A DNA stretch of 62,615 bases, the filler included, from Hausera hauseri (taxonomy: Eukaryota): the NCBI GenBank assembly GCA_046269625.1. It is 12 parts of 12 records of this genome, joined end to end, with 100 filler letters (N's around TTAATTAATTAA, not from the genome) between each part and the next. Parts side by side here need not be neighbours in the genome. Positions count along the whole stretch, not along the records: positions 4,110 to 13,606 come from JBJURY010357709.1; 11 more parts are not named here. One strand, 5' to 3'. The notes below the pieces were generated by a model. That model made no database searches. It was given only the letters and a program-made list of their open reading frames with translations, and had not been told where the DNA came from. A program made the translations under genes and the position numbers. This document shows, one piece after another, positions 1 to 47,697 of the stretch (position 1 is its first letter; every line of letters starts with the position of its first letter).

Positions 1-310
1 ATATTTTCTGTCATCACCTGTTGAATTTTTAATTTACTGGCAGATATTTCATCTTGCAATCTGAATACATTCATTTCCGAATCATTCCACAACCCACAAG
101 ATCTATCAAACGTTCTTCTATTCATATCACTGTAATTTTCCTTCATGTTTGCAAAATTTTCGAATTCAACCTGAATAATTTTATCGGCCTGAGCGTGTCT
201 ATTTCATTGGACAGACGGTCACGTTCATCGACAACATCCTCATACTTCAATTCAACGTCTTTTATCTTCTTGCAAAACATCGCCTGTTCCTTATCGTGCA
301 TCAATTGTAT
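1..310 (-). pseudogene. Unidentified coiled-coil coding fragment replacing the SMC4 C-terminal head
   Basis: After SMC4-like AGFSLINLELKE the frame reads HDKEQAMFCKKIKDVELKYEDVVDERDRLSNEID... (heptad-like, with stops and a frameshift). No LSGGE signature or Walker B follows. Confidence 0.35.
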
Positions 311-3300
311 TTCTTTTAATTCCAGGTTGATCAGCGAGAACCCCGCTTAAAATTCCCACAGTCGTTGCTGTTTCAATCTGTAATATTCATCCTTTTGCAA
401 ATCATGAACACTCGTCACGTTCTTCAATTTAATAACACGTTGCATATACTGTTCTTCTTTGTGTCGGTATTCCTCTATAGATGCCAGATTTGGCCTTTGA
501 CAATGAAGTTTGTCCTCCATTTCTTGATATCTAATCTTCTGTACATTAAATGCGTCCAACTCCTCATCTGAATACATCTTCAAAACCGTTTCTTTAAATG
601 CATCCTTTTGAGAACTGATCAATTTTTTGTTTCTTTCTCCAATGAGATCCATAAAAAATTATTGTCTTCTTTAAAATCTTCTGGAATTTGATATAGCTTT
701 AACATAGCGTGGGATTCTTTGATTTTGGAAATTCGATACTTAATTTGATCTACTTTCTCTTGTTTGTCCTTAACATCACGTTCCACCTGGACTTTTGTCT
801 GGTTCTGCATTTTTAATTTGTCTTGCAACTCCGAAAACACCTTTTCTTCTTTTGCTTTTTCTTTGCCCAATTCACCCATCTTCTTCTGAATTTCCTTAAA
901 TTCATTAAACGTTTGTTTAGCCTTTTCTTCCGAATTCGATAATAGTGTGATAAGTTTCTCTAATTATTTTTCTTTGTCTACCTTTTCTTTTTTGTCCCGC
1001 TCCAAGTTTTCACTTGTTTGGCAAGCATTTTTTCAGCAACAATCACGGCTTTGTTAACTTTCTTCAAGGATTCGGCCTTATTTTTCAAACTGTCATTGAT
1101 CGTGTTGATCCTAGTTTATGACACCGACAGTTTCCTTGGTCATGTTCTTAATGTTGTTCGTTAATTCTCCGACTTGATCCTGCAGCTTCTTGATCTTACT
1201 GTTACTCTTGTCGAATTTCTCGGTCAATAAGGCGATTTTCTTTTCGAATTCAGCCAACTGTCTCATGTCCGGTTTCAAATTCTCCAGTTGTTGTTTGGCT
1301 TCGGTAATATTCGCTCGTAAATTCGTCTGCTGTGCCAATAACGGCTTTAAACTATCAGTGCATCGTTGTTAAACACGCTGTCCGGCCTATATGTCCGTAT
1401 TCAATTTGTTCCATCGCTCTTCGAATCCGTTTAACGCCGTTGACAACTCCTGCATTTCCCGACTTTTCTTTGCCATATTCTTCTCGATCTTTCTCCGTTT
1501 GTCATGGGTCAACATCACTGACGGATCGGCTATCTGGTTTATGTTTGTGTTGATTTTCCCTGACAGACTCCTTCCGCCACCGGTGTACGCACCGGCTGGC
1601 TCCAGAAGGTCACCTTCTAATATCACGATTCTCTGCTTTGTTCCCGATGAACTATGAATCTTCTTTGCCGTGATTATGTTATCTACAATGAGCAGATCGC
1701 TCATCACAAAGTAAAATGCGTATCGATATCGACTATTCGAAAATTGCAACATATCGAACACTCAAACAGACTCATTCGGAGCCTTAAATGGTTTGTTCAC
1801 GTCCAGTCTCAATTGTTTATCCAACGCAATGAACGTCAATCGTCCGGCATCAGCTTTTTAGAACATTGTCCAACCTTGGACACGCTGTCGAAATGGCAAC
1901 GTCATATTTACTATCAACAGTTGCCAGATCACCAAGACGACCATATACGTTTTTAATTCTGCCAAACGGCACTTGTTCCATGATAAATTGCAAAGATTTT
2001 TGTCCGGTCTCTTTCGATCGGGATGACTCTAATTTTTGTGAAAGTTCGTTTATTTCTTGTTCAAGATTTTGTTTATTCCTTTTAGTATTATTTAACTTTG
2101 CGCCGTTGTCTTCAAATTCCTTCTCCATTACTGGTAGAGAGGTTTCCAATTTGTTCAGATTCGCTTGGTTCGTTTCAATTTGATGGGAAACGTATTCAAT
2201 ATCCGTTTCTAGCTTGCCTAATTTCTTTTCTTCCGATTTATAATTATTCCACAGCAAATCTCTCTGACATTCGAAATCGGTAATTGCACTCTTTTCTGAA
2301 TCTTTTCCTGTTCCGTTCGGACTTCTTCGTCCTTTTTGTCTCGTTTTTGCTGAATACTTTGAGTTTCTTCTTTCAAGCGCTCCTGAGCAACGATCATATC
2401 TTTATTTTATTTCTGAAGAGATTTCAAAAATTGTTCCTTTTCATCATTTAATTCATCACTTTTCAATTTGGATTCGTCCAGAACATTTTCATAATTAAGA
2501 ATTTCCACTTCGTAACTAGTAATTGATTTCGTCAAGACCTTTATCCGATTTTTTGTGTGCACGTGAATATCGCGCAATCGCGTATTTTCCACTTCATGAT
2601 TGGTGAAATTCTTCTTGGCTACTTTGAATGATTCGCACTTCTTTTCGTAATCTTTTTAGAATTTTTTAATTTCGACTTGTTTTTCAGATTTTTCTGCAAT
2701 TATTACATCCAATTCGGATTGCAATGCTTAGAGATTCTCTTCGTTAAGGTTTCAAATAGCCAATTCTTCAACTGATCAATTTTCCTTTAGTTTAAATTGC
2801 ATTTCTATGCTTTTCCGAATGACGATTTCGTTACAGAGTTTGAGATATTTAACACCTTCGTTTCGAACACCTTCTAATTCTTTCTTCTCTTTTTCAACAA
2901 TTTTAACTCGACTCAATTTTTCAGCACGTAATTCACAAAGTTTTTTTAATCGCATGGACAAGTCTTCGAGCGGAACTTTAAATCGACTAGAACCAATGAT
3001 ATCCTCTAAATATTCCAACAAACCGTCTTCATGTTCAGTAAGGGCTTTCGGTTTCATCAGAGCGATTTGTTTAACTTTTCCTTGCAAAGTCAAAAACCGA
3101 TTATGATCCCAATCAATTCCTTGTTTCTTCAGAAAATTCACAATTTCTTTATTATTTTTCCTGTCGCCATTTATTCAATAAATACTCAAATTATCTTTCG
3201 TCACCGTTCTGGACACGGTAAATTCCGAATTTGAAATTATCTCATAATCTTCATCGCCGTCACCGGTGGACACCATTTGTTGAAAATATACGCACACTGT

Positions 3301-3605
3301 ACAGTCTGGCACATTTGGAAAAAGTTCACTTTTGTGAATCAAAACATTGAGTTTCTTCGATCGAATTTTCGTTGCACGAAATCCAAAAACAAAAGGCATA
3401 GAATCAATAACGTTACTCTTACCGCTTCCATTAGCACCGATAATACACGTGAAATTTTTATGAAACGGACCTAATGTTCGATTTCCCCCATAATATTTAA
3501 AATTTTGTATTTCAGTCTTCGAAATAATCAACCTTGACCCAGATATGTCATAGCAGAATGCTGGTGGTAGTACTCCCTCAACAACTATGGGAGGATATTC
3601 TAATA
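311..3605 (-). pseudogene. SMC4: Condensin subunit SMC4 pseudogene, intronless, with many stops and frameshifts, C-terminal head missing
   Basis: RLIISKTEIQNFKYYGG..LGPFHKNFTCIIGANGSGKSNVIDSM.FVFGFRA.KIRSKKL (Walker A); GIDWDHNRFL.LQG.V.QIALMKPK..EHEDGLLEYLEDIIGS; hinge YGRLGDL..D.KYDVAISTAC and GDLLEPAGAYTGGG; PNLASIEEY. In-frame TGA at 3175-3177 and frameshifts near 2400 and 2260. Confidence 0.92.
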
Positions 3606-4007
3606 TTAATTGTTCGGATGTTTAATTACTTTCAACGAGCGAATTCTCTTCGTGGACAAATTCATAATCTGCAGATATGGAAGCGGATTCAATTCCGCTG
3701 ATTTTAAACGATTCCCCGAAGCATTGATGTAAGGAAGATTCGTGATATTTGACAACGATTGAACTGTTTTAATGGCATTTTTCGACATGTTGATGAAACA
3801 TAAATGAATGAATTGGATGACAGTGGAGGTGTCCGTTAAATCATGTTTTGCACAATCCAATTTGACATATGCAAAATTTAAACTTGCTCCAATTTGTGAA
3901 ATCATATTAATACATTCCGATACGACTATTTTGCCCAAAATCATTATTGGCTCATATTCTTCCATGCTTTCTTTCTTCAATCGCATCATTTGCAAAACAG
4001 TTTCCAA
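3606..4007 (-). pseudogene. LRRC23: Leucine-rich repeat protein fragment, LRRC23-like (ciliary radial spoke), 3'-truncated
   Basis: AYVKLDC..HDLTD....FIHL.FINMSKN.I...L......INASGNRLKSAELN.LPYLQI.NLS matches the recalled LRRC23 N-terminal LRR block. It ends after HP, directly against the SMC4 5' region. Confidence 0.72.
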
Positions 4008-4009
4008 AG

Positions 4010-4109: not shown

Positions 4110-4111
4110 TT

Positions 4112-4660
4112 AAGGATTGTAAGGCAAGTTTAAGAGAACCCATGTTTAGACTTAGTGAAACAGACTGGGTTAGTTTGCCAAATGGAGGTATTACTACCTC
4201 TCCAAATAAATTAACAGGAACATATCTGGGGAAAGGAATTACGGACGATAAATTTCAAGATACCTCGTCCAAAGGCATATACAGGCCTAAGGAAATTGAA
4301 GCTTTCAGACAATTTATCGCTTTCCCGCAACAACGAACGCTTGAACTAAACCTAGCCATGGCCTCGGTAGTGGCCGATACAAGATATCAGGCTAAATGGG
4401 AATCATTACTTGGCTTAAACCATTATCAGGGAGTAAGTACAGAAATACTCTACAAAATTTCGGGAAGATTTTTGATTTTTGGCCAAGCCGCATCCAGATT
4501 CCTAGCGATATATTTCCTGATACAAATGATCAAGGCGGTCATCCAAAAAGTAATAAATGGATATGAGATATTTACATTAACCGAATTTTCATGCAAAATA
4601 TTGACTTCAATCATAACGCCCTTTGGAAAGTTCTTAAAAGCATATGAAGAGAATAGATGA
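4112..4660 (+). CDS. C-terminal part of a chuvirus (Jingchuvirales)-like fusion glycoprotein with membrane-anchor region
   Basis: DC....PMFRL...WVSLP; SSKGIY..EIEAFRQFIAFPQQR...LN; FLIFGQAAS.FLAIYFLIQMIK.VI..VINGY.I....S.KIL. This follows the recalled chuvirus G pattern (PMY..W; GIY...LR..IMFP; F..FG..SA....I....LIK.II...IHGY). Open from the contig edge. Confidence 0.75.
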   Translation, partial: KDCKASLREPMFRLSETDWVSLPNGGITTSPNKLTGTYLGKGITDDKFQDTSSKGIYRPKEIEAFRQFIAFPQQRTLELNLAMASVVADTRYQAKWESLLGLNHYQGVSTEILYKISGRFLIFGQAASRFLAIYFLIQMIKAVIQKVINGYEIFTLTEFSCKILTSIITPFGKFLKAYEENR

Positions 4661-5329
4661 AAATCAGACGTAGAACGCCATGTCGGCTATCACAATCGTA
4701 AACGAAAAGGAAGGCCTATGTTCTTGTACAAGCGGAAATCTACAAAACCCAATATGCGAAGAAATAATTTAGATGATGACGAGCCTAAGGGAGGAGAAGC
4801 ATTTGCAAAAATAAGCAGGCACAAGACGTACTCTATCATTAAAGCACCATTGACTATGCTACCTCCTACCGCTCTAGTCTATAACGACTGTGACAAACGA
4901 TCAATGAATTCATATTAGACGGAAACCTATAAAAGGATGATTAATGTAGAAGATCCGTATGAAGGCACGAAACGCTACGGAATCCTGCGGAAAATGTGTT
5001 ACCGACAGCCCGTGGAATATCCCAAAATGTTGTACTCTCCGAGAGAGCCTTGGAATATAGAAACTAGGTCAACGGTTTGGGACCATCCAAGGTTGAAAAC
5101 CCTCCAAAATATCGAAGTACACACTAACAATTGAGAACCTTTAATGAGTACTCAAGAAGCAGAAAACTTATTCATCGAAAGCAACGAATTATACCGAAAC
5201 GGAGAGTTGAAGCAACTAGCAGAGTACATAGTATCCTCCCCTGAAATTCGAATTAATGGGCATAAGATATCAATGATTAAACGTCCAAAAGTATCATCGA
5301 ATTGTGTTGGAATAATAATAGAAGGATGA

Positions 5330-8300
5330 CCCTTCGCTAAAATCATTATCGAAGACTGGGAAGTTTATGCATTAATTGATACAGGATCGGAAATGTCTTA
5401 CATCATAAATGATTCAATACCTCAAAGACTCAGAGAGCAGCTATACCCACCGTCTTCAAAAGGTCCAGGAAGTACAGGAGCTTTCGGTCAAATGTCAAAG
5501 CCAAGGTTTAAATGGAACCTGGAAGTTCAAATAGCTGGACAGTTTTTCCGTCATGAATTTGCAGTTATGGAGCAATTAACAAATGACGTAGTTTTAGGGT
5601 GCGATCTACTAAAAAGGTTAATAAATATAGCAATCGATTTGCAAACAGAAAAATTAATAAAAATCAGACTAAATAAAGGTATAATAAAGGCCAAAGAAAG
5701 AAAATTTGGAGAAGTATGGACATCTGTACACGAAGACATTCCACCAAGAACAGAAGTGATAATTTACGCCCAAATACAGCAAGATGACGATCAACGGGTA
5801 TATTTTGAACCAAAGGATACATTAGATCCGAATATATTACATAGCAATATACTAACAAGAGTACACTCCGGTCGGGTGCCGATCAGAATAGCTAATAACG
5901 CGCAGATACCCGTCAGGCTTCATGCTTATACCACTCTGTGAAATACCTATAGAGTATCGTCAATAACTATTGAAGAAAAACCTTATAAGTATGCCGAATT
6001 CCCGCCTCATGCCGAAACTAAGTTTTCATCTGAGTCTTATTGTCGACTCTATGAATTATTATGTCACCATAAATCTCTTCTGGCGAAAAAAGTCGAACGA
6101 ACGCTTAAGGCCAATCTATAGATCTTGGTATTCGCCAATCCAAATGGTTAAGAGGAAAGGTACCACAAAATATCGATTTTGTATTGACTACAGAGTATTA
6201 AATAATCTTACGATGAAAGATTCCTTCCCATTACCGTCAGTCAAAGAGGTGTTAGATAGACTCTCCAGAGCAAAATGCTTTACCACTCTGGATTTACAAT
6301 CCGGATATTGGCAATTAGAAATTCAGGACGAAGACCGTTATAAGACAGCATTTAAAACGCACGATGGTGTTTATGAATTTAACGTCATGCCGTTTGGTAT
6401 TACTATTGGGCCAGCCATATTTACAAGAATGATGAACAAAATGTTAATTGAACTGGATCATGCCTTTGCATATTTGGATGACGTAATGATAGAGTCAAGG
6501 ACAGAAAAGGAACATTTAAAGGATATTGAACATGCGCTGATGCGTTTGGAACAAGCCGGATTGAAACTAAATCCAAAGAAATATAAATGGGCTCAGAATG
6601 CAGTATCCTACCTTGGCCATATAGTTGGAGAATGAGGATCGAAACCATATAAATCGTTATTAAACAAAATATCAGATTTTATGGAAGCACAAAACCAGAA
6701 GGAGCTAAGGCATTGGCTAGGACTCTGCGGATATTATGCAACCTATGTGCCAGATAATTCAAAAATTAATGCACCCTTATATCATCTACTTAAAAAAGAA
6801 TTAAGTGGAAATGGACAGACGTCGAACAGAAGCCTTCGATGAGATGAAGAAGATATTAACAAGTGAATCTGTTTTACGATACCCAGACTTTCACTTACCC
6901 TTTATAATCAAGATAGACGCTAGTAAAGAAAGTATTGGTTATTAATTGGTGCATAAAAGAGAAGATGACAAACTAGAACACCCAATTTCTTATGGAGGAC
7001 ATTCCTTGAAGAAGGCCGAGAAAAATTACTCTGTTGCAGAATTAGAAACCCTAGCCGTAAAAGAAGCACTTTGATACTTCAACGTTTACGTATACGGGCA
7101 GAAAATTTTAATTGTTACTGATCACAAGCTGCTACGCCCTTAAAATGCCAGGCAAATAACCCGACATGCAGACTTAACAGACGGATCGAAGAAATATCGA
7201 GATACAATATCGAATTCCAGTATAAACCGGGAAATAAACATGTAGATGCCGATGCACTATAGAGATTAAAAACTAAAACAATCGCAATCACGGTAATAAG
7301 GAAAAGCAAACTTGAAGCAATAGTAGATTGCCAACGCACCTTAGTGCTGGATAAAGCAATTAAAATCTCCTCAGAATAAAGAAAGGATAAAGTTACTCAG
7401 CAGATTATACAATTTGCTAAAAAAGATATCATACCAAAGGGACGACAATTAAAGAAACATTTACGCAGACATGGACATAAATACTACGTCTTAAATGACA
7501 AGAGCAATAAGGATATTCTATATTACAAAGGAAGGAAATTGATAGTTATTCCAAAAGGTTTACAAATCGAAGCGTTAACTTCTGATCATGATTTGTATTT
7601 AGCCGGACACATGTCCTAGAAGAAAACATTAGAAAGAATAATGAATAAATACTTTTGGCCCAGTATCTGTATTGATATGAAAAATTGGGTAAATAGCTGA
7701 GAAGTATGTGCAACTAAACAAAAGAAGATGAAAAACTACATGGTCGAATTAATACCAATTAATGTGCCCGATAGACATGTGCAAGCCATGTCTATGGATA
7801 TCGTAGGACCTCTTCCTATGACCCACAAGAACAATAAGTATATCTTAACTTGTGTTGATCGACTAACTTATTTTGTCGAGTTGATAGCATTAATTGATCA
7901 AAAGGCAGAAGCTTTGGCCGAAGCCGTAGTAAGAAGAATTATTTGTCGATATGGGCCCCCAGACAAGATACTCACAGATCGAGGAAGAAATTTTACAAGC
8001 GGACTATTCGAGAACATCACCAAAATATTTGAAATCGAACGGTTAACAACTACCACATATCACCCTCAGTGTAATGAAATGGTCGAACGGATGAATGTTA
8101 CCGTCATACGGATACTATCAACAGTAGTGGCGAAGGACCAAAAAGATTGGTACGAATTTTTAGAAGGAACTCAGTTTACTGTTAATACCATTCCACATTC
8201 AGGAACAGGATTTACGCCATTTTTCATGATGTATTGACGTGAAGCCGTATTACCCACGGATATAGGAATGACGCCATACACGGTTAATCTTGAAGATTTA

Positions 8301-8620
8301 GAACAAAATTTTCCAGAATTAGAGCAGACGCAATGACAAAAGTGTTGGGAAATCGCCAAGACGTTATCTCAAGAAAATCAAAAGTAGTTTAAAAAGCAAT
8401 ATGATAAGAAAGCAAAACCACATGATTTGAAACCAGGAAATTTGGTTTATGTACACTATCCCGTAGCCAGGAAAGGCATCTCATTAAAACTGACTCGTAC
8501 AGGCAGAGGACCGTACGAAATTACCATAGTTACGCCGGCCGGAGTATATATTAACAAGAATGGAAAGGAAGAAGTTGTGTTAGTAAAATGAGTGGTCAAG
8601 ACAGAATACGGTCCAATAAA
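5330..8620 (+). pseudogene. pol: Gypsy pol of element A (protease, dUTPase-like spacer, RT, RNase H, integrase), disrupted
   Basis: ALIDTGS (5378); FCIDYRVLN, LDLQSGYWQ, MPFG, YLDD; RNase H DASK and NYSVAELE; integrase MDIVGP, TDRG, MVERMN; GPY motif near 8510. Many stops and frameshifts, and a deletion at the RT start. Confidence 0.95.
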
Positions 8621-10078
8621 CGTTACAATTTACGCCAACGCAAGTTAAAGGCATCTTCAATAATTGTTAGACCGATGTCGTACGTTCAGGTAGTTTTAGT
8701 ATTATCGTTAATTGCTTCTTAAGTTCCGAGAACACAGACTCAATGGTGGCACGATGAATCTACGCTAGGAGATGTATACGAAATTCGAAAGAGTGGAATG
8801 AGGACGAGGACCAAACCAGAACAAACCCCAGAAGAAATCCAAAAGCGAGAAGACATTAAATTATTGCAGTCGATGACAATCCATTATTTCTCGCCACACT
8901 CTGTATGTGTCGTATTTAAGGCGTAGAGGCCACACCACGATTTCGGAAAATTTCAAATCGTCTTACATGATGTAACAACAAAAGAAGCGAAAAATTGTGA
9001 TTTTGAACCGGGAGATTATACGCAGTGTTGCGATGTAGATTTTGGACGCACTTATAATCTTACTGATCGCCTATATCTACCGGATTCATCCAAAGTTTAC
9101 ATCGAAATAAAGCCACAATTCCAATCACTCATCCCTACGTGGAACAGACATCATGTAATAAAGCCTAACGAAATGTTACGATCCACTGACCCAGATATAA
9201 AACTATTAGACGAGATTATCCATAGAATCTCTGTAAACAAGGAAAACCAATGCATCCAAGTAGATGCCAAGACAGAGCTAACTGTCAGTCGAGAAATTAA
9301 TATCACATTCGAAGCAATAAAAGGACCGACTTAGAAGATAGGGTATTGTTCTATTCGCGCAGGCGTGCAACATCCATGCTGTAAACTACCCATAAACTAG
9401 GAGTTTATAATAAAATTTGACTTATATGACGTACGGCTGAATAAACCGAGTATCCAATTACGACCTTACTATCCAGAAAATAAAATATGGAAAATTCCAG
9501 TGGGAACCACGACCAAAGAGCCAACCACTAAGGTTAGTCTTACTACTCGGACTGCTACAGCGAGCAATATAACTAAAGGAAAATTGGAAAGCGTATCTAT
9601 TAAATATTCGGCACACCGATTTAAAATTGTGTTCTTTGTAGAAAGGAAACAAAATTACGATATTCACATAAGTTGCCGAACAACCTATAATAATCAAATT
9701 GTAACGTTACTTAAAGGCACTTATCAGACAGAATGCTTTTTGTTAAAACCGCAATCCGATTACATAGTACAAATAAATGCAGAAGGTAAGCAAAACCAAA
9801 CAATTACATTGCGTACCTTAGACGTAATTCGTGCAGGATCGCATACATATGAAAATATAGACGATGAAATCACAACCCCAGTTACAACACAAGCACCACT
9901 GAGATTAACTACTTTCCGATCGTATCCATTTTTTGTACTGTCAACGTTTGCTCTCATTATACTAATTGCGATTTTTCGGTTAGTTGCCAAAAATTGTTAT
10001 TTTAAGTGTCCTAAAAGTACAAAGTGGGAACTAAGGGAACTGGCAGAGACCATTGATTCATATGATAAAATAACCTGA
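8621..10078 (+). pseudogene. Type I membrane protein following integrase in element A (signal peptide, two Cys-patterned repeats, FN3-like domain, TM)
   Basis: One frame from RYNLRQR (8621) through MSYVQVVLVLSLIAS (8675) to 10078, with 4 point stops. Contains TQCCDVDFGRTY, LLDEII..CIQV..HPCC, CFLLKPQSDYIVQINA and TM YPFFVLSTFALIILIAIF. Confidence 0.75.
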
Positions 10079-10192
10079 CAATTACAGAGCGGGTTATTCT
10101 GTCACTGGATAAAAAATTGGTTTTATTTTAAAAATGATCTTTATTTTAAGAATAATCCGTATTATTTATTTCTCAGAATCGAGAACAGCGGG

Positions 10193-11958
10193 ATGTCCGG
10201 GCGACATAGAATCGACCAACGGGAAAAGGGAAACAATTCGACATGTCGAGTTAGTATAGACGAATTTCTACAGAATCACGCTACTATGCTGATTATGAAT
10301 TCCAATTCTATTTATCGATAAATGCACAACGAACTGTACGGAAAAGCTGTCATAAAATATGACCAGGTTTACGCCATACCGAATAATTTGAAAGGGACAA
10401 CGGAAGAAGCTAGAATCGTCTACCTTTATACCATGAGGGAAGATCGCGACGGTAAAGCCTACTCGCTCAGACAGCTAATAAATCACGAAATCGGTCAGGA
10501 TCTGTATATCCACTTAGCGGATGGCAAAATCTATTACAGGCTACAAAACCAAGAATGCAATACGGAAAATAGACGACATTATAGATTTAGTACCTTAAAA
10601 TTACTAGGTGAAGATTTACAGGATAAAGAATTGAAATTCATAGTCACCGCTTTTTCCGTCAAAATAATGATTGAGGTAACAAAAGACGAACCGAGAAAAG
10701 TCTTGTCACCACCCCTAGAATTTCGGCATAGGCCGTTAGAATCAGAGATAGCGAAATTCTTATATTCCTACAGATTGGTGCCACACGCTAGGAATACTAA
10801 AATTATCGCTCTAAGCTGCGGCGAAGGTAACGAGGCGGACAAAATACCGATGAAAATTTTAATCAGGGAGACGGATGGAATGGAATTATATCACACGATT
10901 ATTAGCCGAAGAAAACGAGTCAGAGATACCTTTTTTGACAAAACAGGAATCCGTAAAGAAAATTTAAAAGAAGGAAGCGACATCAAAATGGTACAAAATG
11001 AATTAGCCCATTGTCTGTATGGATGTATACTTAATGGATATCGTGTGGAATAAGATATATCGTTATTAGAGATTCCTTACTGAAGAATGGCAGGAGTAAG
11101 ACAGCTTAATACGCACCCACTTATTGACGAGAGAACAAAGAAACTGCTACGAGAAAGAGACTATTCGATGCCAAAGATCATGGACGCTTACTTCAAAATA
11201 ATGATAGAAGCTACAATTAATAGTCGGACTAAAATTAGTAAATTGTTGACAGCAACCAAACGTACTCAGTACCTACGAGATGCTTATGCCGGAATATCGT
11301 GGGAACACGAATATGTGCCCACAAAACCTGAGTATAACTTGATCAGTGCTGCAAACCCAAATCAAATTGATGGGAAATACCGTAAAGAATATCAACCCTA
11401 CAAAATGCTCGGAACTGACAATAATTAGCTTCATAGCACCAGTCAGAAAGACTCCATAATGCCACTAGACAAGGAAAAGACGACAAATCGGCCTTCAAAA
11501 TCCCCAAAGTTCCACAAAAGAAACAGAGAATCGATACAAAATCGCAAAATACAAAAGGGAAAACTTCCTTATGTGATCGCATATTTAAAGGGACGCGTAA
11601 AATCAGTGGCACAGAAACGATGATCGAAGTAACGAAGAAGACAGAAAATGTCCTACTAGTTAAAAAAGAATCGGAAGAAACTATAGTTCAAGAAAAAAAA
11701 GACCTAGAAAAGATTAAAAGGTATACGGAAATAAATATTCTTAGGAATAGAAACTCGACCGGAAATCAACACTTTGCTGCTGTAGGAGATTCGCCTAAAA
11801 TGCTAATAATAACTGAACATTATAGCAAAGGAAAGATCAAAGAAGCAGTCTTTTACATCACGGTTACCCCAAAGAGAGAAGTATATGAAAACACCTATAT
11901 ATGGGAGAATCCCAAATTAGGAAAATATGTTGCCCTGATTTTCCAATCAGAGACATGA
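10193..11958 (+). pseudogene. Long accessory ORF of unknown function downstream of the element A polyprotein
   Basis: ATG 10193 and ORFs 10322-11053 and 11087-11428 share one frame broken by isolated stops. ORF 11620-11958 follows in a shifted frame. Same strand and A-rich composition as pol. Confidence 0.5.
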
Positions 11959-12229
11959 AAAATTAACGGTGCCAGTAGANNNNNNNNNNTCAAGACACAA
12001 TATCAGAAATACCTAGCAGCCAACCGAGTTCCGGACTTAGATCACGAGATGGTGGTCGATTGGACATTAGTAGCAGTAAGTTGTGACCCAAGACGAAGCG
12101 CCGTGGACCCAAAACAGAAACGAATTCATGGATACTTATATTGAGGTAAAGAATCGTTAATATTTGAACAAATTGAAATTGCGATCAGTGGACCTGAATG
12201 ACGAAAAATGGAAAAGAGAAGAAAATGAA

Positions 12230-12364
12230 TGCCCAGTCTGTGAGGCAAACTTCCAACAAGGATATGTTATCCTGGATAACAAGGATTGCAGACATAAATA
12301 CCGCCGGGAATGACTAGAAAAGTGGACCCTAGAAAATGGTAAGACCACTTGCCCAGTATGTCGA
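12230..12364 (+). pseudogene. Degenerate RING-H2 zinc finger
   Basis: CPVCEANFQQGYVILDNKDCRHKYRRE*LEKWTLENGKTTCPVCR. Ligands 5 and 6 read CGC and TGA, each one substitution from His and Cys. Not in the ORF track. Confidence 0.75.
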
Positions 12365-13314
12365 GCCGAAGCAGCCGACTTAAAGTACTTCTCAAACGGA
12401 GGATATACGAGAGTAGTACGTATAAAATTTTATCATAGTTACGAAATCGAAATTCGGCACGATCATAATGATACGGATTCCGGAACTAGTTTACGCCGAC
12501 GAATGAATTTATTAAGACCTCGCGAGGCTTGCGGCACATCTTCGGACTAAATGGGCACCTCAGAGAATGCCGTTCAGGAAGAAGATATGTTGTAGTGACG
12601 GACTAGTGGGCGAAATGCTAAACAGGCGACATCTGTAAATATTTTATTTCCTAACAATTAAATTGTAAATACTTATTGGTTTTGAAAATTTCCTGTAGCA
12701 ATTAAATTGTAAATAGTCGGTTTGATGGATTTTGAATGATCATATATGCAATTATAATGCCAATAAAAATAATAGATCAGAAAAAGCGGAAAACAAAACA
12801 AAAATTAATATGTAAAAAGGAAATAGTAGAAAATTTAACGGAAAAATTGGAACTATATAAACAGAGATGAAAATAGTGAAAAAGAGTAGTAATGAGTGGA
12901 AAATAGCTAACGATCGACAGCAAACAATTGGAAACTTCAAGGACAGAGTTGATTGACTTATTTGACGATTTTTATTGCGGAGTGATCGACGTATTGTATC
13001 CAGAATTTTACTGGTAAATGTTTTTTTTATTAAATTGTTGTACGGTCTTAAATTTCTATATAGCTTTGCATTGCCCCATAAGGGTAATTGGACTCTCCTA
13101 AGTTTTTAAAATACACTGTAGCCTTAAATGGTTAAGAGTTGAACTTATAATTCGCACGTCATAGCATTCAGTACAAGCATTATATTTAAAATTTCAATAC
13201 AAGGCACAATCTGTCTACTAGATTACGGTAGACCTTCCCTGTATCAAAAGACTAATTTCAACGTAAATATTGTTAGTATTATAAAATTGCCGGTTCTGGG
13301 CCACCCCCCCTCAT

Positions 13315-13520
13315 TTGCGTAACTTCCGGTTTGAAATTGCGCAACGACCGGGGTAGAATTGCGTCACTTCCGGTAAAAATGGCGTAACCCGGTAGAAATT
13401 GCATCACTTCCGGTAAAAATTGCGTAACATCCGGAGGAAATTACACAATTTTCAGCGGAAATTGTGCAATTTGTGCAGGAATTGCGTCACTTCCGGGGTA
13501 CAAATTGCGTTACTTCCGGC
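13315..13520. repeat. Degenerate tandem repeat, unit about 20-23 bp (AAATTGCGTCACTTCCGGT), about 9 copies
   Basis: Copies include ttgcgtaacttccgg, ttgcgtcacttccgg (twice), ttgcatcacttccgg, ttgcgtaacatccgg and ttgcgttacttccgg. Confidence 0.85.
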
Positions 13521-14368
13521 AGTAGCTGTGTCCTGATGGGGAAAAATAGTGTAAGGCACATAAGTGCGCGGGGATTGTCGGGATAACCGTTCAGGATAGC
13601 CCTGTCNNNNNNNNNNNNNNNNNNNNNNNNNNNNNNNNNNNNNNNNNNNNTTAATTAATTAANNNNNNNNNNNNNNNNNNNNNNNNNNNNNNNNNNNNNN
13701 NNNNNNATTCTTTGTCTTCTGTTTTGTCTTAGTGTAAATTCTTTAGTTGTTACATTTTATTAAGTGACAATGGTATTAACTTTGCAAAATTTAAACAAAA
13801 GTGGGAATAGTGAAACCACGACTGCACCAATCAATATATTGAATTTCAAAATCAATATATTGATTTTCAAAATTCCCCATATAAAATTCCTATGCATTAT
13901 TGATTATCGATCCTGGGGGGGGTTGGTGCAGTGCGCTCACTTTAACCTACTATTACTCGGTTAAGACAATTGATTGAGATATTCAGCAAGAGGTAATAAC
14001 CCTTCGAATCGATTGAACATGAGTGTTATAAATGACCTGAAGAAGTAAGAATTCCTTTGGTAGATAGTCACAGAATTATTAATCTAACCATTAACTTATT
14101 AAACTAGTATGAACACAATAAAATTATTTGACACCTTTTACAAAATAAAGAAGATATAGCGCAGATTACTTCTGTAATCGTACCGCCGTCGAACTCACCT
14201 TCAGATTATCAATATTCATTCGATTTGTATGTTGGTTGTATCAAACACCGAGACATTGCCATATACACAACTAACACTCTTCAAATGTTTTTTCAGCTTT
14301 CGATATTGAATCAAATTTCTTATTACTCAAAACTTGAAGTCAAAATTCCATTTCCTGCCGTTTGTTTA

Positions 14369-19466: not shown

Positions 19467-20347
19467 AACAGGCATTTGACAGCATTCACAACGTCCATCA
19501 CCCTGGATCAAAAGCCACAGTTTGCCTATTATGCAGTAGAGTTTGTTGGCCTTGCATGCTAAACGACGTAAATCGGTGGACAAAAAAATGTTCACTGTGC
19601 CAACAGTATAAGGTCAACAAGACCATACAACCACCAATCCTACACTACCCTACTGGCTCACGGTATGAAACCATCCACATGGACATAGTAGGACCACTTT
19701 CCGAATGTAACGGATATCAGTACATACTAACCATTCTCGACCGGAAAACAAGATGGCCTGAAGCCATTCCAATCCGCCAAATAACCACGCAAAGCGTTGT
19801 GGCTGTATTGCTAAATACATGGATTTCTCGGTTTGGAGTACCTAAAAACATTATAACAGATCAAAGTGCCCAATTCAAATCAGCCATGTTTAATCAGTTA
19901 ACCAAATCGCTTGGTTCAAATCATATACATATATCGCCCTACAATCCACAGGCGAATGGTTTTATCAATCGATTTCATTGTACACACAAATCATCCTTAC
20001 TAAACCTATGCCACGAAAACAAGAACTGGTTGGATGCACTACCCATTGTGCTAATAGGATGGAGAAACACTCAAAACACTAGCACTGATGCCTCTATGAC
20101 ACAACTATTATTTGGTGCCCACCTCACATTCCCACAAGATCTCGTGAGCAATCAGGAATTAAATTTCATTCCCGCTCTCCACGAAGCTCGGAAGTATTTC
20201 CCGTTAATAGACACGAACCATGCATTCCACAGCAATCACAAAAATCCACTCATGTCCAAGAAACTACAAGATGCGTCCTTTATCTTGCTCAAAAGCCAAC
20301 AAAGGCACAGTTTTGAACCGTACTACACGGACCCTACAATCTCATAG
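19467..20347 (+). mobile_element. Gypsy integrase fragment, CsRn1-like clade
   Basis: HHCC finger H..HHPG...WP.M..DV..W...C..CQ; HMDIVGPL; LTILDRKTRWPEAIP; WISRFGVP..I.TDQ; YNPQANG. The catalytic Glu is lost (FINRFH). Confidence 0.9.
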
Positions 20348-28537: not shown

Positions 28538-30070
28538 GTCACAGATTACTGAAGAATTTCTGGAATTTTTGGAGTTTTACAAAAGATTAGTCAGAATCCC
28601 GATGATAAATTTATTGAATCATTTATATTGCATGTGTTTTATGAGATACAGAATAATATCAAATCATTATTGGATTTTCCCGAAGAGTTGTATGCTTCAG
28701 ATGACCATCAGAAGAATCCGAACAGACGAGTCTCTTTTCGTGAACAATCTGATAACAATGAACTGAGTGTCTCTCGAGATCCATTGTTGCCAATCAAAAG
28801 GAAAATTGTCGTTGAATTAAACAATATATTATCTGATTTCAATCGACGAAACGGTAATTTTATGGTTGATCGAGGCATGAAACCGTTAGTGGAAGAATTG
28901 ATAAAGTTCATAAAACTGTGCAGTGACCTCATCGGTATATCTCGGTAATGCTTCAATAATCCAAATACATCATTAAGTTCAACAATGACAAAGGCCGATT
29001 CTCTAAATCCTGATGCTACCATCGATATTAATCAGGTAGTGCGAATAATTCGTAACTGCATTCACAACTCAAATAATAATAAACAGAGAACTTTGAGTTG
29101 GATTAGAGAAATAGATATCAAGAACACGCGCTTAGATATACCAAAGACATGGTACAGATGTACTACTGTTTGTGAAATATGTTCTAGTCAATGCACTCAC
29201 CACCTTTCCCGTAATGGCAATCACAAAAATGATATACAGTGCGAAAATATTGATAAAAACAAAATTTATTATTGTAAGCAATGTATTGTTCACAATTTGT
29301 CCACGAAACATGTTCCCCACGTATCAACGTCTACGAGCAAATCACAATTTTTTTACAAAACGTTATTTTACACCCTTTCAGTGGCTTCTTAGTTGAATGT
29401 GACAGACAAGGTATTGCATTTGATTCGAATATATTCTGTATATCGGATGAAAATGCGGTTGATGTAGTTGATTTATACAAATGGCCTGGTCAGAATTTCT
29501 TAAAAGATAACGTACATCTAATGAGTCAGATGATCATCGACGTTGTAAAAGTGTGTTAGAACCTGTTAACCATTTACTTGTTCAGTTAGGTGAATATTTA
29601 TTGGATGTAGTCAATCCGGACTACTGGGAATTGACTAATTCAGCTAGTTTATGTAGTTCTTGTAAAAAGATATCTATGAAGTTTATGAATAAGCATCACT
29701 GTCGCATTTCTAAACAAGGTCTTTGCAGCTACTGTATCCAGGGTCAGGATAACAGTCGGAAGCTGTGTTCGGGATGTTTTATTAAAATCCAAACCACGAA
29801 CATTGGTAACGACCTGCCAATTATCACCGGAAAAAATAAAATCATCAACATTTGGTTACACATTCGGATACTTTCGAAAATCGTTGACAACATGGAACGG
29901 ACCAATGAATTGGGAGGTGGATGATATTGTCCATGAATGTTTTATATGCAATGCAGAATTTTCACCCCAATTTAATCCCATTCGTCATTTTCGAGCTTGT
30001 GGGAAACACGTTTGTAATGAATGTAGTCAACGTCTCCAAACATTCAAATGGAGAGAAATAAATGATCCGA
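28538..30070 (+). pseudogene. ZFYVE1: ZFYVE1/DFCP1 (double FYVE) pseudogene, 3' part, frameshifted
   Basis: C...CEIC...C; IYYCKQC; FSGFLVEC; WPGQNFLKDN; first FYVE PDYW...CSSC...KHHCR; second FYVE WEVDD...CFIC...RHFRACGKHVCNECS, truncated before its last Cys pair. Confidence 0.8.
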
Positions 30071-31439
30071 TGTTGAAACTAGCTATTGAAGACCAAATAA
30101 GAAGTTTTGGACAAACTTCAAGTCAACCCCTCACAGAACTACATCCTCCACGAAATTCTGCGTTTCGTGTCAGCCCTCTGATATTTGCTCTAGTCCTATC
30201 AGATTTGTTGATGATATTTAAGTTTGTTAGCAATTCTCCTATAGTTTGGATGTCAGGCAACGTCCATCTTCAATCGCCATTACCTGCCGTACTGACAATA
30301 TCCGGTAACTATGTCTATGGAATTAACAAGTGGAACCATGCGGCAGCTGTAAGTGCCCATGCCTCAGTCCCGCAATCAATATCTGTAATATTACCTTTAG
30401 CTACCTCTCCGAACTCGCAATATTTTTCATCATACGTAACTAGTAATCAGTATCTTACAAATGTGGATTCTCATTACAAAAGGGTCACAATCGTACCATT
30501 AGTAGTGTAATTATCATTGTCTATGGACCCACTTTTGGGACAAACAAATTTTCTGTCAAATCACAATTTTGGAGAAGGACTCGACCTATGTATCCGACCC
30601 CGTAATCATCAACTGGAGAAAGCGCCTACTTCATTCTCAGTTTATCCGTTTCTGGAGTAACGAGATTCAGTCAACGGACTCAAAATTTGCCGCGATTCTT
30701 CACAATATCCTCTCAAAGTCTCCCGGAAATAATTTATTCGATAATAGAAAGAACAAACATTTGAGATGTGTCGACGAGACCGGCGTCGATTTCATTAACA
30801 AGGACGATCCAGGGGGAAAACACTTGAGATATGGCAAAATGCAACAATCAGTATTCGGACGTTAAAACACAGATGGGTGAGATTCTTATTGCCGGTTTAC
30901 GCCCACCAGTGCAACTCTTTTTGCGCTTATGCAGGTCTCTGTGGCTAAAACCATTTTTCATTTTAAAGGTTTTTTAAGCTTAATGTCTTTGAATGCCCTT
31001 TATCCCAATCATCACTCGCCACTGCTACCCCAGCTGCACGCCCGTACCCCTTGTTAACACAGAAGGAAACCGCTCAAGCTCCCCATGCATTTCACCATTC
31101 CATTGGGATCATTTCGCTGCAACTCTCCTTCCTAGTCTTCAGCAATAACCAACACATAAAAACCATTAGAACTCCACTCCACGCCACGGCGCAGCTCCTA
31201 TACATTTCTTTATCCTCCTCACTCAACACTTCCAACTTCTATTTTACACACCAATACATCACTGTATATCCTGTCGACTCACTCCTATTTTTCGTCTGCC
31301 ATGAACGTCCAGTCATCCATCTCATGCTTTATTTTCGCCTTCGGGGTGGATCGGATTCAAACCCATTCTTCTCGGGTGACAAGTCCACAAATACAGGGAA
31401 CGTCTATCGTTTGCCACATTCCCAACAATCACGAGGGTC

Positions 31440-34259: not shown

Positions 34260-35300
34260 TCAACATGAAAATTTTAGTTCAAAATTTCCATTTCTAAAAA
34301 TGGTAAAAATGCTCATTCTCTGAATTGTCAACAGGAAAGTTAACGTTATCTCAGAGTAAATATGGCAATACTCCTGCGTAATTTCAGAGGTCCAGACTTC
34401 CTTGATAGTATCGGTTAAGTTTTTTGCTAAAGTATGATTTCTAACATCGACTTTTCTTTTGACAATGGCCCAACAATTCTCTATTAGGTTCAGGTCTGGT
34501 GAGGATCCAGGACAAACCACCGGCTTTTTGTCTTTGTGTATGACACGGCGCTCCATCCTGTTGGAAGATGATGGTTTTGTGTATTGCCATCCACTTGGGT
34601 AGCTTCTGCGTTAGTATCTTGATGTACCGCTCAGTATTAAGGGAATTAAGGTATTCGGTGGAACAAACCATAGTTCAGCTATATTTTTGACAATAATGGC
34701 ACCCAAAATCATGACAGGTTGAGAGTGTTTTACTGTAGCGACCAAGTACTTTTTGTTGTATCACATATTTGACGGACGAGGAAAAAATTGGAGTAAGTGT
34801 AGAATTGTGAAATGGTATTCTCATCTGAGACTATCAGCTTTCTACAGTTAGCTACTGTCTAATGAGAACCTGTCTTGCAAAGGCCAATCTATCTGAAACA
34901 TTCTTTTTTGACATAGTTGGCTACTTTACCGGTTTGTAATATTTTAGGTAAAATTCATCGAGGTGGGGTCGTTGAATAGTGTGTACGCCCGAAATCTGAT
35001 CATCAGTTGAAAAACTGGAACAAATTGCAGTACTGGATATCATAGGATTAAGTTGGGTACGGAGAAGAATCACATTATCAGAACTTACTGACGTAACAGG
35101 TGGTCTGCTTGATCGCTTCCGTGATGCATAATTATTTTTATCAGCAATTCCTTTGAGTGTGTATGAAAACGGACAATGGAAAACATCTAAGTGAGGTACA
35201 ATGGTCCTTTGTGATAAGGTGTCCTTCTTCAAAACGTCGATTTGGTTCTCTTTTCTGTCGAAATTTCACATTTGTACCCGTTTTTAGCAGTTTTATAACC
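34260..35300 (-). mobile_element. Tc1-family transposase relic
   Basis: FQQDGAPCH; PGSSPDLNLIENCW..VKRKV; ATVKHSQPVMILGAI; N-terminal RKRSSRP. Frameshifted. Confidence 0.9.
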
Positions 35301-37376: not shown

Positions 37377-40300
37377 ATGATAACGAATCCATCAGCTCCT
37401 CAATATTCAAAGCGTGAGGAAATGTACCCCATGTATCAAGTCCTACAAATAAAACGAAATTATGATGAAAATCTCATACCAAGCCACCATGAATCAAACT
37501 GTAAAACGACGGACAAGAATGAGTCACAATCGCCTGTGAAACCAGAAATAAATATAGAAGTAAACGTATACCCATTAACGGCTTTGCTGGATACTGGATC
37601 TACAACCACTATCATGAGAGATGACCAGTTACCTAAAGAACTGAGAAGAAAGTTAAGAAAACCAAACACAACGCTAGTTAACGTGGGAGCATTTGGTATG
37701 GAAGAAGAAATAAAAACGGTACTAGACGCAAAAGTTAAGATTGGCAACCAAATACTAAACCACACAATTAGAGTAGCCAAGAATTTGACCAACGATATAT
37801 TAATCGGATGTGACATATTAAATCAGCTAGAGAATGCTTATATTGATTTAAAGACAGGTCAATTAAAAACCTTTAATAAGGAACAGCATGAAGGGTCAGT
37901 TTCTCTGGTACAGGACGTGATAATTCCACCACAATCCGAAATAATAGTACCTGGCCAAATAGAAAGCAAATTACTCGCCACATATATACACTTTGAACCG
38001 TTTTTAAGAACAATGGAGAAGTACGATATTATTATTGCTCCGCATGTAGATAAAGTGAGAAATGGAAAGATTCACTTACGAATTTGCAACGCTGGAAATA
38101 ATGAAAAATGACTAAAGGGAAATACAAGGTTGGGAAAAGTAACAGAGATCGAAGAAATACAAAAAGAAAAAATTAATTCAGTTATATCAGACGTAGATGA
38201 GATAGAAGAGTTGATGAAGAAGAAATTGAAGAAGGAAGCAAAGGAAGGCAGGAGAAATAAAGAAATGACAAGAATTAATTGGGAAGAAAAGTTGGGGGAC
38301 TGCGAAATATTAACCAAGGATGAGAGAAGAATGTTAATTCAATTATTAAAAAAGAACAACGAAAGATTTGCCCAAAATGATTATGATCTAGGTACGATGA
38401 AGGTAATACAACATTCCATCAAATTAAAAGAAGGACAGGAGAAACCAATAAAGAAACGACCATATCGCCTAGCTTATTATAAAAAGCAGGAAGCTCAGAA
38501 AATCATAGAGGAAATGAGAAAAAACAAGATAATACGACCAAGTTGCTCACCATGGACAGCGCCTGTAGTGATGGTTAAAAAGAAAGACGGAGCCATGAGA
38601 TTCTGCATAGATTATAGAGCTTTAAATGAAATAACCGAAACCGACACTTATCCGCTACCTAGAATCGACGAAATACTAGACAAATTACACGGATCAACGA
38701 TATTTACCACTATTGATTTACAAAAAGGGTATTGGCAAGTAGAAGTAAAGGAGGAAGATAAACCTAAGACAGCCTTTTCAATAGGCGAAGGACTATGGGA
38801 ATTTAATAGAATGCCGTTCGGATTAAAGAATGGACCACCAACGTTTCAAAGAGGAACTGAATTACTACTGCTGGACGCACCACATGCCATGGTCTATATT
38901 GATGATGTTATAATAGCATCATCAGACTTCCAACAGCATTTAAAGGACCTGCAAGACCTCTTTGATAGATGCGAAATAATGAGCCTAAAAATAAACCCAA
39001 AGAAGTGCTAATTCGCCCGGGCAGAGGTCGATTTCCTCGGACACCGAGTCGATAGGCACGACGTGAAACCGCAAGATAGGCTTTTAGGGAAGATAAAAGA
39101 TTTTCCCAAACCAACTACAGTGAATGAACTACGCCGATTCCTGGGCTTAGCGAATTATTATCGAAGATTTATAAAAGATTTTAGCAAAATAGCCAAACCC
39201 TTATATGAATTACTACGCGAAGATTTAGAAAAAGTAGTATGGACAAGTGACTGCCAGAGAACTTTCGAGGAATTAAAAGAAAGATGGCTAAATACTCCAA
39301 TCTTAATCTACACAGACATGACAAAGCCGTTTATATATTGGCAACGGACGCAAGTGACTATGGAGTAGGAGCAGTCCTTTCCCAAAAAGGCGAAGATGGG
39401 AAAGAACACCCAGTAGCTTATGCTTCTAGAAAGTTAAATAAACATCAAAGGAATTATGCAGTTATTGAAAAGGAACTACTAGCCGTAATATTTGCACTAG
39501 AAGTGTTCTCACCATATATCAGTGAGAATAAGCCATTATCGATATACACAGATCACCGACCCCTACAATGGCTGAAGCAACACGAAAACCCAAATAGTCG
39601 ATTATTACGATGGGCTCTCAAATTACAGCCCTATACGTTAAATTTTCAATATAAACCAGGAACACGGAATGCAAATGCAGACTATTTATCAAGAATGCTT
39701 GAAACACCGAAGATAAAAGAAGTGGTCGCTGCAGTATGGAGCATGGATGGATCCGTAGAGAAAATAAAACAGAATCAACAAGAAGACACAGAGATAAAGG
39801 CAATTAGAAATTATATACAAAACAAAATATTACCATCAAATCGAGAATTAGCTAGACATTTGGCCCGATTCAGTGAGGCCTACGAAGAAAAGGATGGATT
39901 TTTATATTATATCCACCAAAATGGACCAACCTTGGTAATACCAGAGAAGAACAGAACAGTGTTATTGACACAATACCATGACGGATTATTAGGAGGTCAC
40001 CAATCAGCACGAAAAACGACAGCCAAATTAAAAAGGAAGTATTTTTGGCCCACCTTAGTGAAGGACGTACAAGAATGGTGTGATAGCTGTAAACTCTGCG
40101 CTACGCGTAGGAACACCGGATCAAAATTCAAAGCTCCCCTCAAAGTATGGGATAATCCGCCAGCCCCGTTTGAGTTCACAGCTATGGATGTAACAGGACC
40201 TTTACCACTAACCCGAAACGGAAATAGATATATTCTAGTTTTCATAGATTACTTCACTCGATGGGTAGTAGCACTGCCTATGGCAGATATGAAAGCGGAC

Positions 40301-42717: not shown

Positions 42718-42793
<76 letters not shown>

Positions 42794-42810
42794 ATGATGA
42801 TGATAGTGAT
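42718..42810. repeat. (TGA)n microsatellite
   Basis: About 25 perfect units at the contig edge. Confidence 0.95.
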
Positions 42811-42825
42811 GACGCAGTATGTGTA

Positions 42826-44900: not shown

Positions 44901-45049
44901 CCCATCGTTGCCGTCGATGGTGTCGGTTTTGCTGGCATGACAACAATTAGAACGAAACGTAAATGAAAGATTCGATAAACTGGGACAGAAAGATGAAAAC
45001 CATGCACCCATATTGCCGAATCATCATATACTTACCGTCAGTGTTTGTA

Positions 45050-45373: not shown

Positions 45374-45591
45374 TTTCTCGACGTATTGATGCTGATGAGA
45401 CGTAGTTGTTTATAACCGCTGCCACTGTGACTATAATTTGCGTCTAGCTGCGGCTTTTGTTGTTTGAAGCACAAAATTGATTAATCGCTTGACTGTAGCG
45501 GTTCGTTTTGACACAGGTTTCTTGCTGGACATCCGCTTGTTAGGTTTACGTTTAACAATCGTTTTTCGGAAATTCTTTATTTTTATTATAA

Positions 45592-46315: not shown

Positions 46316-46337
46316 TGTTTCAATAAATTAATCAATC

Positions 46338-47637: not shown

Positions 47638-47697
47638 ATGTTGTTATTGTTTTAATTTTTTTTCTTCTTCAACAATGAGTATAAATATACATGTGTA

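Follow-up and report, generated by a model that had tools for sequence, protein, structure and literature searches.

Domain organization of the focal copy

The window analysed here, 62,615 nucleotides from the genome of Hausera hauseri (assembly GCA_046269625.1), consists of 12 small contigs whose joints read N44-TTAATTAATTAA-N44, and adjacency across these joints carries no meaning. Our subject is a retroelement on the contig at positions 4110–13606 (JBJURY010357709.1, hereafter contig A, with one 10-N gap at 11980–11989), which encodes an envelope glycoprotein (Env) upstream of the protease (PR), reverse transcriptase (RT), RNase H (RH) and integrase (IN), and a second membrane protein, denoted TM2, downstream of IN. 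Another, divergent copy lies on contig B (37107–42617). The frames of contig A were translated with X at stops and compared with Pfam, transmembrane (TM) helices were predicted by hydrophobicity, and depths refer to the sequencing run X1, perhaps the source sample, from which contigs were recruited at 80% likeness and their depths summed. The features of the two copies, including open reading frames (ORFs) beyond TM2, are as follows.

4112–4660, + strand: C-terminal third of Env, gB-type (chuvirus-like, class III), with membrane anchor, cut by the contig start (Monjiviricetes_fusion, PF24664, at 4115–4669, profile positions 426–609 of 653, E 9e-18)
4661–5329, + strand: Env–PR linker, sharing the frame of its two neighbours, with three stops beyond the one after Env
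5330–5940, + strand: aspartic protease (DTG) and PR-RT spacer (RVP, E 8e-5; colinear with relatives)
6105–6800, + strand: RT (YLDD), with one stop and about 50 codons gone upstream (RVT_1, E 7e-34; 45–50% to relatives)
6820–7146, + strand: RNase H, in another frame, with two stops (RT_RNaseH_2, E 4e-26)
7548–8590, + strand: IN, with zinc finger, core and GPY-containing C-terminus (Integrase_H2C2, E 3e-11; rve, E 2e-12)
8675–10078, + strand: TM2, with signal-like start, three cysteine-marked repeats resembling fibronectin type III (FN3), threonine-rich stalk, TM helix at 9929–9985 and a tail of 30 amino acids (aa) ending in YDKIT
10322–11428, + strand: accessory ORF, with an N-terminal domain without assigned family (10322–10790) and a DEDDh exonuclease-like domain (about 10800–11310)
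11429–12170, + strand: broken coding stretch that includes the 10-N gap; no homologue found
12173–12547, + strand: RING-H2-like finger (12224–12364) with six of eight zinc ligands (zf-RING_2, E 4e-6; RNF38, E 1e-6)
13315–13519, no strand assigned: tandem repeat with a period of about 21, possibly part of the 3' region of the element, with high summed depth in X1
37539–41017, + strand: PR, RT, RH and IN of the contig B copy, which the RT tree places as the sister of contig A
41078–42499, + strand: TM2 of contig B, in frame with RH-IN, with three cysteine-marked repeats, TM helix and basic tail

All modules named in the preliminary description are thus found in the claimed order on one contig and one strand, and the two membrane proteins indeed bracket Pol, the Env C-terminus on the 5' side and TM2 3' of IN, as they do in intact relatives; the three minus-strand frames of contig A gave no Pfam match. 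The order PR-RT-RH-IN with Gypsy-type domains is that of Ty3/Gypsy elements (Metaviridae). The focal copy is dead: it contains at least 24 internal stops along the domain-bearing frames and at least four frame changes in the polyprotein region (PR/RT, RT/RH, RH/IN and IN/TM2), and lacks about 50 codons between PR and RT. Env, linker and PR share one frame, with an Env-PR spacing of 231 codons compared to 272 and 315 in two relatives (P0126 and P0167, respectively), and contig A is colinear with five intact relative polyproteins. Gag, most of Env and both long terminal repeats (LTRs) are not present on contig A, and no LTR pair was found in it or in the four close loci (L001–L004) used for the comparison of downstream gene content, all of these being cut at one or both ends. 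The element clearly belongs to a large repeat family, with summed X1 depths, which do not equal copy number, of 1,100–24,000 over 4110–10132 (2,800–24,000 over Pol and 1,100–2,100 over TM2) and of 4–7 for pieces identical to the window.

The contig B copy, which had been described as a divergent relative repeating the part from PR to the TM protein, does contain PR-RT-RH-IN-TM2, and its RH-IN-TM2 portion is a single frame of 1082 aa. The integrases of the two copies are 34% identical.

Intact relatives and the position of TM2

Six intact relatives (P0126, L003/P0167, P0165, P0168, P0169 and P0171) encode Env-PR-RT-RH-IN-TM2 in a single frame. P0126 is one ORF of 3735 aa that includes Gag with CCHC knuckles, a signal-like segment, Env, two protease-like domains, RT, RH, IN and TM2, and L003/P0167 is one ORF of 3703 aa with CCHC knuckles, PF24664, PR, RT, RH, IN and TM2 (PF24664 E values of 1e-91 and 1e-83, respectively); the other four show the same single-frame order from Env or Gag onward. 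Gag is identified by Pfam in P0126 and L003 and by precomputed Pfam in P0165; for the focal copy, it falls beyond the contig start. Among the close loci, L050 (47% in the best segment) was excluded from the set, ending about 270 bases beyond the match.

Searches from both ends of the polyprotein lead to the same proteins. The RH-IN portion of contig B, used as a query among long proteins, gave 996 matches, of which the best five show 44–46% identity and the others at most 38%; in all five, IN is followed by a hydrophobic segment, an ectodomain and, at the C-terminus, a TM helix. Such a hydrophobic helix 3' of IN is present in 8 of the 121 proteins examined, namely the best five, P0126 and two unrelated ones; P0027 and P0109, candidate TM2 bearers with a hydrophobic segment after IN, were rejected because the clade excludes them and the FN3 profile does not detect them. 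With the Env of P0126 as a query among proteins of 2054–6537 aa, seven matches were obtained, five of which include IN (one being the L003 protein); a signal-like segment follows IN in all five, four pass the C-terminal TM threshold and the fifth has a weaker helix.

The IN identities, 52–90% among the relatives, 36–40% between contig A and the relatives and 44–50% between contig B and the relatives, indicate that these are many separate families. In quick trees, the TM2 bearers group with both window copies on one side of a branch, for IN (119 rows, four short rows removed) with 8 of the rows and an SH-aLRT support of 92, and for RT (69 rows, with every second outgroup protein included and two removed as short) with 13 of the rows and a support of 91. 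The occurrence of the same order in independent copies, which the preliminary description had named as support for its proposal, is therefore borne out by the six intact single-ORF relatives and the two one-clade trees, and we are dealing with one complex element in which TM2 is part of a real, lineage-wide architecture. Among viral contigs, two single-protein queries found no relative, and an alignment query found two ordinary Gag-Pol-Env elements.

The Env C-terminus of the focal copy matches the Env of five intact relatives (27–29%, E 1e-17 to 1e-20). On contig A and, intact, in six relatives, PF24664 shares the frame of PR and precedes it, the arrangement of a gB-type Env ahead of Pol; in P0126 and L003, with which contig A is colinear, Env lies in frame between Gag and Pol within one polyprotein, as in Burro/GYPSM1. 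The possibility that Env is the tail of an upstream element was rejected, as was a link between the element and the SMC4-like sequence at 1–4009, which is on another contig.

The relatives show further variation. The P0171 cluster (P0178–P0191) comprises 15 distinct, near-identical intact polyproteins of 4026–4029 aa, each on its own contig of 14.6–18.4 kb, with variation concentrated in TM2 and the Gag-Env linker. Extra aspartic-protease-like domains, some after IN, occur in P0002, P0003, P0168, P0169, P0171, L001 and L002; tandem proteases might permit activation within one chain. The position of ankyrin repeats varies, after IN in P0003, L001 and L002 and between Env and PR in P0165. A helical segment that by eye resembles TFIIS-N precedes a ubiquitin-like domain (Pfam E 0.02–0.04) in the Gag-Env region of P0126 and L003 and at L002:10906–11517; some elements have this unit inside the polyprotein, and L002 encodes it as an ORF of its own further downstream.

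TM2, a predicted FN3-like membrane protein

TM2 of contig A spans 467 codons (8675–10075), with the hydrophobic helix at aa 419–437 and four internal stops; in this copy, IN is read in a different frame. Its intact counterpart is P0210 (33% over 451 aa, E 7e-79), which has the same three cysteine clusters and ends alike (YDRIT vs YDKIT), so that the stop at 10076 is the natural one. With leave-one-out profiles, contig A (12.7 bits), contig B (9.2 bits) and P0002–P0005 beat every one of 436–500 shuffles. P0001, of the same clade, has after IN a short, cysteine-rich ectodomain that bears no relation to the FN3 repeats, perhaps through a past swap of the module.

The membrane-proximal repeats align with invariant C, L, Y and I, and a profile of six TM2 domains compared with PDB retrieved FN3 chains only (26 of 26 among the matches listed, best E 0.0087). 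The fold comparison suggested in the preliminary description gave a concordant answer for the membrane-proximal repeat of contig B: an AlphaFold2 model contains seven strands and the TM helix (pLDDT 68), and Foldseek matched it to FN3 targets (prob 1.0, E 6e-5, TM 0.72). As modelled, this repeat has the seven-strand sandwich and the L-x-P-x-T-x-Y motif of fibronectin type III domains; the two distal repeats are predicted to be FN3-like from their cysteine pattern alone. The TM2 domain profile also finds P0171, P0167, P0165, L001 and L002 (E 3e-12 to 2e-4) and none of 115 other Pol proteins, and against 1.84 billion protein representatives it gave 13 matches, P0210 included, which divide into 5 TM2-like proteins, 7 cellular FN3-repeat proteins and 1 other. 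In BFVD, TM2 matches FN3 domains from phages and giant viruses. Neither TM2 nor the accessory ORF has a Pfam match over the cut-off, and a direct homologue search with TM2 of contig B recovered 0 of 7,701 candidates; Enterotoxin_b, CHIPS and Tuberculin matches of 14–17 bits, compared to 25-bit cut-offs, were taken as chance.

The C-terminus of TM2 and its mode of evolution are also distinctive. An end of the class I PDZ-binding type, [ST]-x-[VIL], is present in 9 of 13 relatives vs 2 of 115 other Pol proteins, and the TM2 of the focal copy's subfamily has a terminal Y-x-x-I. In one pair (L001 vs L002), with dS near saturation, the TM2 ectodomain has a dN/dS of about 0.27, the TM helix and tail 0.24 and Pol 0.04, which agrees with the purifying selection that the preliminary description called for. 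Among the 15 near-identical polyproteins, 40 columns vary in the last 530 residues compared to 3 in 500 Env residues, a variability that fits the expectation for a host-contact protein.

Possible functions of TM2

Fusogens of the herpesvirus gB type need partner proteins for cell binding, receptor binding being assigned to separate glycoproteins, and paramyxovirus F likewise acts with HN or G. These pairs of a fusogen and a separate attachment protein are our working model, although TM2 has no homology to their proteins. We favour, with moderate confidence, the reading that the focal copy is a dead member of the Burro/errantivirus group in which TM2 would act beside the gB-like fusogen in attachment and membrane targeting. 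In the relatives, one ORF encodes Gag-Env-PR-RT-RH-IN-TM2 and separate accessory ORFs follow. Two internal signal peptides, recognized by eye from hydrophobicity and small residues at -3/-1, would direct the Env and TM2 ectodomains into the endoplasmic reticulum, with Gag and Pol staying cytosolic and host signal peptidase and the element proteases freeing the parts; by such threading and processing of the precursor, both glycoproteins would be made together and arrive at the same membrane. The FN3 repeats might then bind a surface molecule on neighbouring cells, the TM2 tail (class I PDZ in most relatives, terminal Y-x-x-I in the focal subfamily) might position the protein and budding at membrane domains, and Env would fuse after TM2 attachment. 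The exonuclease-like protein of the focal subfamily could bind RNA ends or host RNA-decay or silencing factors without cutting, and the RING protein, if borne by the element, could be a ubiquitin ligase directed against host factors.

More tentatively, and at less than even confidence, the lineage could form enveloped particles with two-protein entry, in which a class III fusogen and a fast-evolving FN3 attachment protein would derive from one membrane-threaded Gag-Pol polyprotein, the PDZ tail would aim at cell junctions, and live and dead exonucleases together with a RING ligase would counter host RNA silencing. A conserved FN3 membrane protein translated together with a gB-type Env offers a concrete candidate for the means by which gB-bearing retrotransposons reach target cells. 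Pol would also have membrane anchors on both sides, an assembly mode unlike that of retroviral Gag-Pol.

Several observations weigh against the attachment-partner reading. P0001 fails the TM2 profile (204 of 490 shuffles score as high), with a cysteine-rich non-FN3 ectodomain at the same place; P0168 is missed by the profile, and P0169 and L004 score weakly. For the whole of TM2, single-sequence AlphaFold2 reached a pLDDT of 42, and Foldseek gave no match at E 0.001. The PDZ motif is absent from both window copies, and the fast variation of TM2 fits relaxed constraint as well. One X1 contig (depth 136) connects 8605 directly with 9946, leaving out the ectodomain, and TM2 depth is lower than Pol depth; thus, some copies, a subfamily, may be without the TM2 ectodomain. 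In the trees, whose rows include no named Burro sequence, the focal IN sits on a long branch (1.85) and no group node reached 95; the assignment to the Burro/errantivirus group is likely, its Env likeness being judged by eye.

The receptor-like build of TM2, with FN3 repeats, a single TM helix and tyrosine and PDZ motifs, suits a host-receptor mimic equally, and its look-alikes in the Atlas are cytokine receptors (0.88–0.92, under the recognition threshold). As such a mimic, TM2 would be exposed on the infected cell as a decoy or dominant-negative cytokine or adhesion receptor that dampens defence or cell death. The adjoining pseudo-nuclease and RING finger are in line with this role, as is the apoptosis- and ubiquitin-related cargo (BIR, BCL2-like, MATH) that Burro is described as carrying in the available text of PMC6431247. 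We nevertheless consider the mimic rather unlikely: TM2 shares the reading frame of the structural polyprotein in each of the six full relatives, whereas the other accessory genes are separate ORFs, and the 1.84 billion protein representatives yielded no close cellular receptor that could have been the donor.

The lesser constancy of the ectodomain relative to the signal and TM frame, with the swap in P0001 and repeats numbering from one to three or more, would instead be accounted for if TM2 were a membrane tether that anchors the Pol end of the precursor at the assembly membrane, or a superinfection block whose ectodomain masks the element's own receptor. A tether does not require an ectodomain with a dN/dS of about 0.27 and conserved cysteines, nor a conserved PDZ tail, and we regard this explanation as improbable. 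Whichever role TM2 has, annotation that ends at the integrase overlooks a lineage-wide gene.

The exonuclease-like ORF and the RING finger

The ORF behind TM2 had been labelled a long orphan, a label that does not hold: its C-terminal half is a DEDDh exonuclease homologue, the top four PDB matches being DnaQ/DEDDh (E 0.004–0.03). Against profiles built from relatives only, one half scores 20.0 bits (best shuffle 6.6) and the other 42.8 bits (best shuffle 9.7), and the N-terminal domain has no credible match in PDB or Pfam. Each of the four close loci has the exonuclease ORF behind TM2, two of them as a pair, and none of the other 59 loci has it. Of the catalytic D, E, D, H and D, contig A retains the middle D alone; the residues of the first two motifs and of the last one have been lost. 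Across the seven aligned ORFs, the catalytic residues are complete in three (L001b, L002b and L003) and degenerate in four (contig A, L001a, L002a and L004), so that the catalytic loss is a subfamily trait and not the result of decay alone. The dN/dS of the intact exonuclease ORF, L001 vs L002, is 0.19.

Between the two exonuclease ORFs of L001 and L002, there are short tandem duplications with a common GGTAGGAGGC core (L001:8368–8488; L002:8767–8944). These GGTAGGAGGC-core duplications are possible signals for subgenomic transcripts.

The RING finger, which resembles RNF38 and retains most of its zinc ligands in a decayed copy, is on the same strand as the element, is repeated in X1 and shares the A-rich strand skew of contig A, which extends through it (0.22 at 12110–12609, 0.02 by 13110). 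It probably belongs to the element. The 10-N scaffold gap separates it from the upstream modules; summed X1 depth is 61–77 over the accessory ORF, 15 just 5' of the gap, 1,064 over the RING finger and 8 on its 3' side. The RING motif is found in none of the four close loci, among which only L003 extends more than 1.2 kb beyond the last exonuclease ORF, and the stretch at 11429–12170 has no Pfam match over the cut-off, no PDB match and no counterpart in the loci.

The gap, the shift in depth across it and the lack of the RING motif in the close loci are the points in favour of reading the order on contig A as a mosaic of nested insertions or as mis-scaffolding. For the contig as a whole, this is very improbable, and nested insertion was rejected for Env-Pol-TM2-exonuclease, given the six intact single-ORF relatives and the exonuclease behind TM2 in every close locus. 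Restricted to the RING finger and the stretch before it, the mosaic is a substantial, albeit lesser, possibility, against which stands the continuation of the strand skew through the finger.

Relationship to known elements

The element is likely a Ty3/Gypsy member of the flatworm Burro/GAG-ENV-POL errantivirus group, judging from the in-frame Env of the relatives, from ankyrin repeats and a candidate ubiquitin-like domain between Gag and Env in some of them, and from Env motifs compared by eye. Burro/GYPSM1 are giant planarian elements of 25–30 kb. According to the available text of PMC6431247, they encode one polyprotein of 4,873–5,140 aa in which Env lies in frame between Gag and Pol, and ubiquitin-like, BCL2-like, BIR, ankyrin and MATH domains are also carried. 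Shared with them are the giant polyprotein, the in-frame Env similar to mononegavirus fusion proteins, PR-RT-RH-IN, tandem repeats and, as seen in the relatives, separate accessory ORFs. Among the relatives, ankyrin is present in P0003, L001 and L002 (E 1e-10 to 5e-12) and a weak ubiquitin match in L003 (E 0.018); neither is seen in the window copy. The differences are that the relatives have polyproteins of 3,700–4,060 aa, that Pfam did not report MATH, BIR or BCL2-like domains in the relatives scanned, and that the available part of PMC6431247 names no second membrane protein, FN3 or exonuclease.

GAG-ENV-POL elements with a gB-type Env are described in nematodes, bryozoans and flatworms in the consulted portion of PMC13524379, which calls the transmission mechanism of most such elements elusive. 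Smed_errantivirus_1–6 (Platyhelminthes C1a, 'ancient errantiviruses', HSV/gB-type Env) share the Gag-Env-Pol order and the gB-type Env, and the main text of that paper is silent on fibronectin, exonuclease, RING, accessory genes and sequence 3' of the integrase. By eye, several Env motifs (YQESDF, PENC-AAFQ, C-TGES, TP-LMS and KCG-V-TNY-G) are common to P0168, P0171, L003 and the Smed errantiviruses; the N-terminal Env domains with the cysteine pattern of the Smed type belong to the part of Env that contig A lacks. Also by eye, the one supplement row of a nematode Env (PMC13524379, seen in part) is unlike the Env of the relatives. If the group assignment is true, TM2 can be examined in Schmidtea mediterranea, for which up to 215 intact copies of related elements are listed (PMC13524379, in the part available).

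An accessory ORF for a DEDD-type exonuclease behind pol is also a feature of the Juno/Vesta LTR elements of bdelloid rotifers; there, as far as the available text of PMC5408684 goes, the enzyme is of the DEDDy/RNase D type, has intact catalytic residues and occurs in place of Env. In the lineage described here, by contrast, it is of the DEDDh/REX4 type, has an extra N-terminal domain, accompanies Env and TM2 and is dead in four of the seven aligned ORFs. The NERV clade of nematodes, a metavirus-type element attributed to Sacco et al. 2022, reportedly also has Env before Pol, and is not known to have a second membrane protein.

The preliminary description held both the lineage and the layout to be undescribed. 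The part that stands is that of one complex element; the order with Env before Pol had already been described (PMC6431247 and PMC13524379, in the parts available) and the lineage is likely known. Neither a second or FN3 membrane protein like TM2 in LTR elements nor the pair of live and dead exonucleases was found in the texts consulted; figures, Repbase, Grohme 2018 and Sacco 2022 may mention the former.

Other sequences in the window

Positions 1–4009 (− strand), a separate contig, carry an SMC4-like coding sequence, decayed yet uninterrupted (SMC_N, E 8e-28, and hinge), preceded in another frame by a leucine-rich-repeat-like fragment recognized by eye; together they resemble a chimeric retrocopy. 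A further chimera of host genes, adjacent to a retroelement, is found at 58655–60585 and 61446–62327 (+ strand), where TCP-1 chaperonin fragments lead into fragments of the ribonucleotide reductase large subunit, 5' of a Gag-like start. At 42718–48402 and 53278–58278 lie Polinton-like fragments, among them a small ATPase and matches to DNA polymerase B (E 1e-4) and dUTPase (E 1e-12), as well as a TBP-like ORF (E 2e-8). An integrase of another Gypsy family (19469–20344, + strand), FYVE zinc-finger fragments (29511–30510, + strand) and, by eye, Tc1/mariner-like fragments (34263–35265, − strand) are also present. Finally, positions 50592–52556 (+ strand) encode an intact, intron-free POT/PTR2 peptide transporter of 654 aa (E 5e-80), to which no identical sequence was found in the protein collection.

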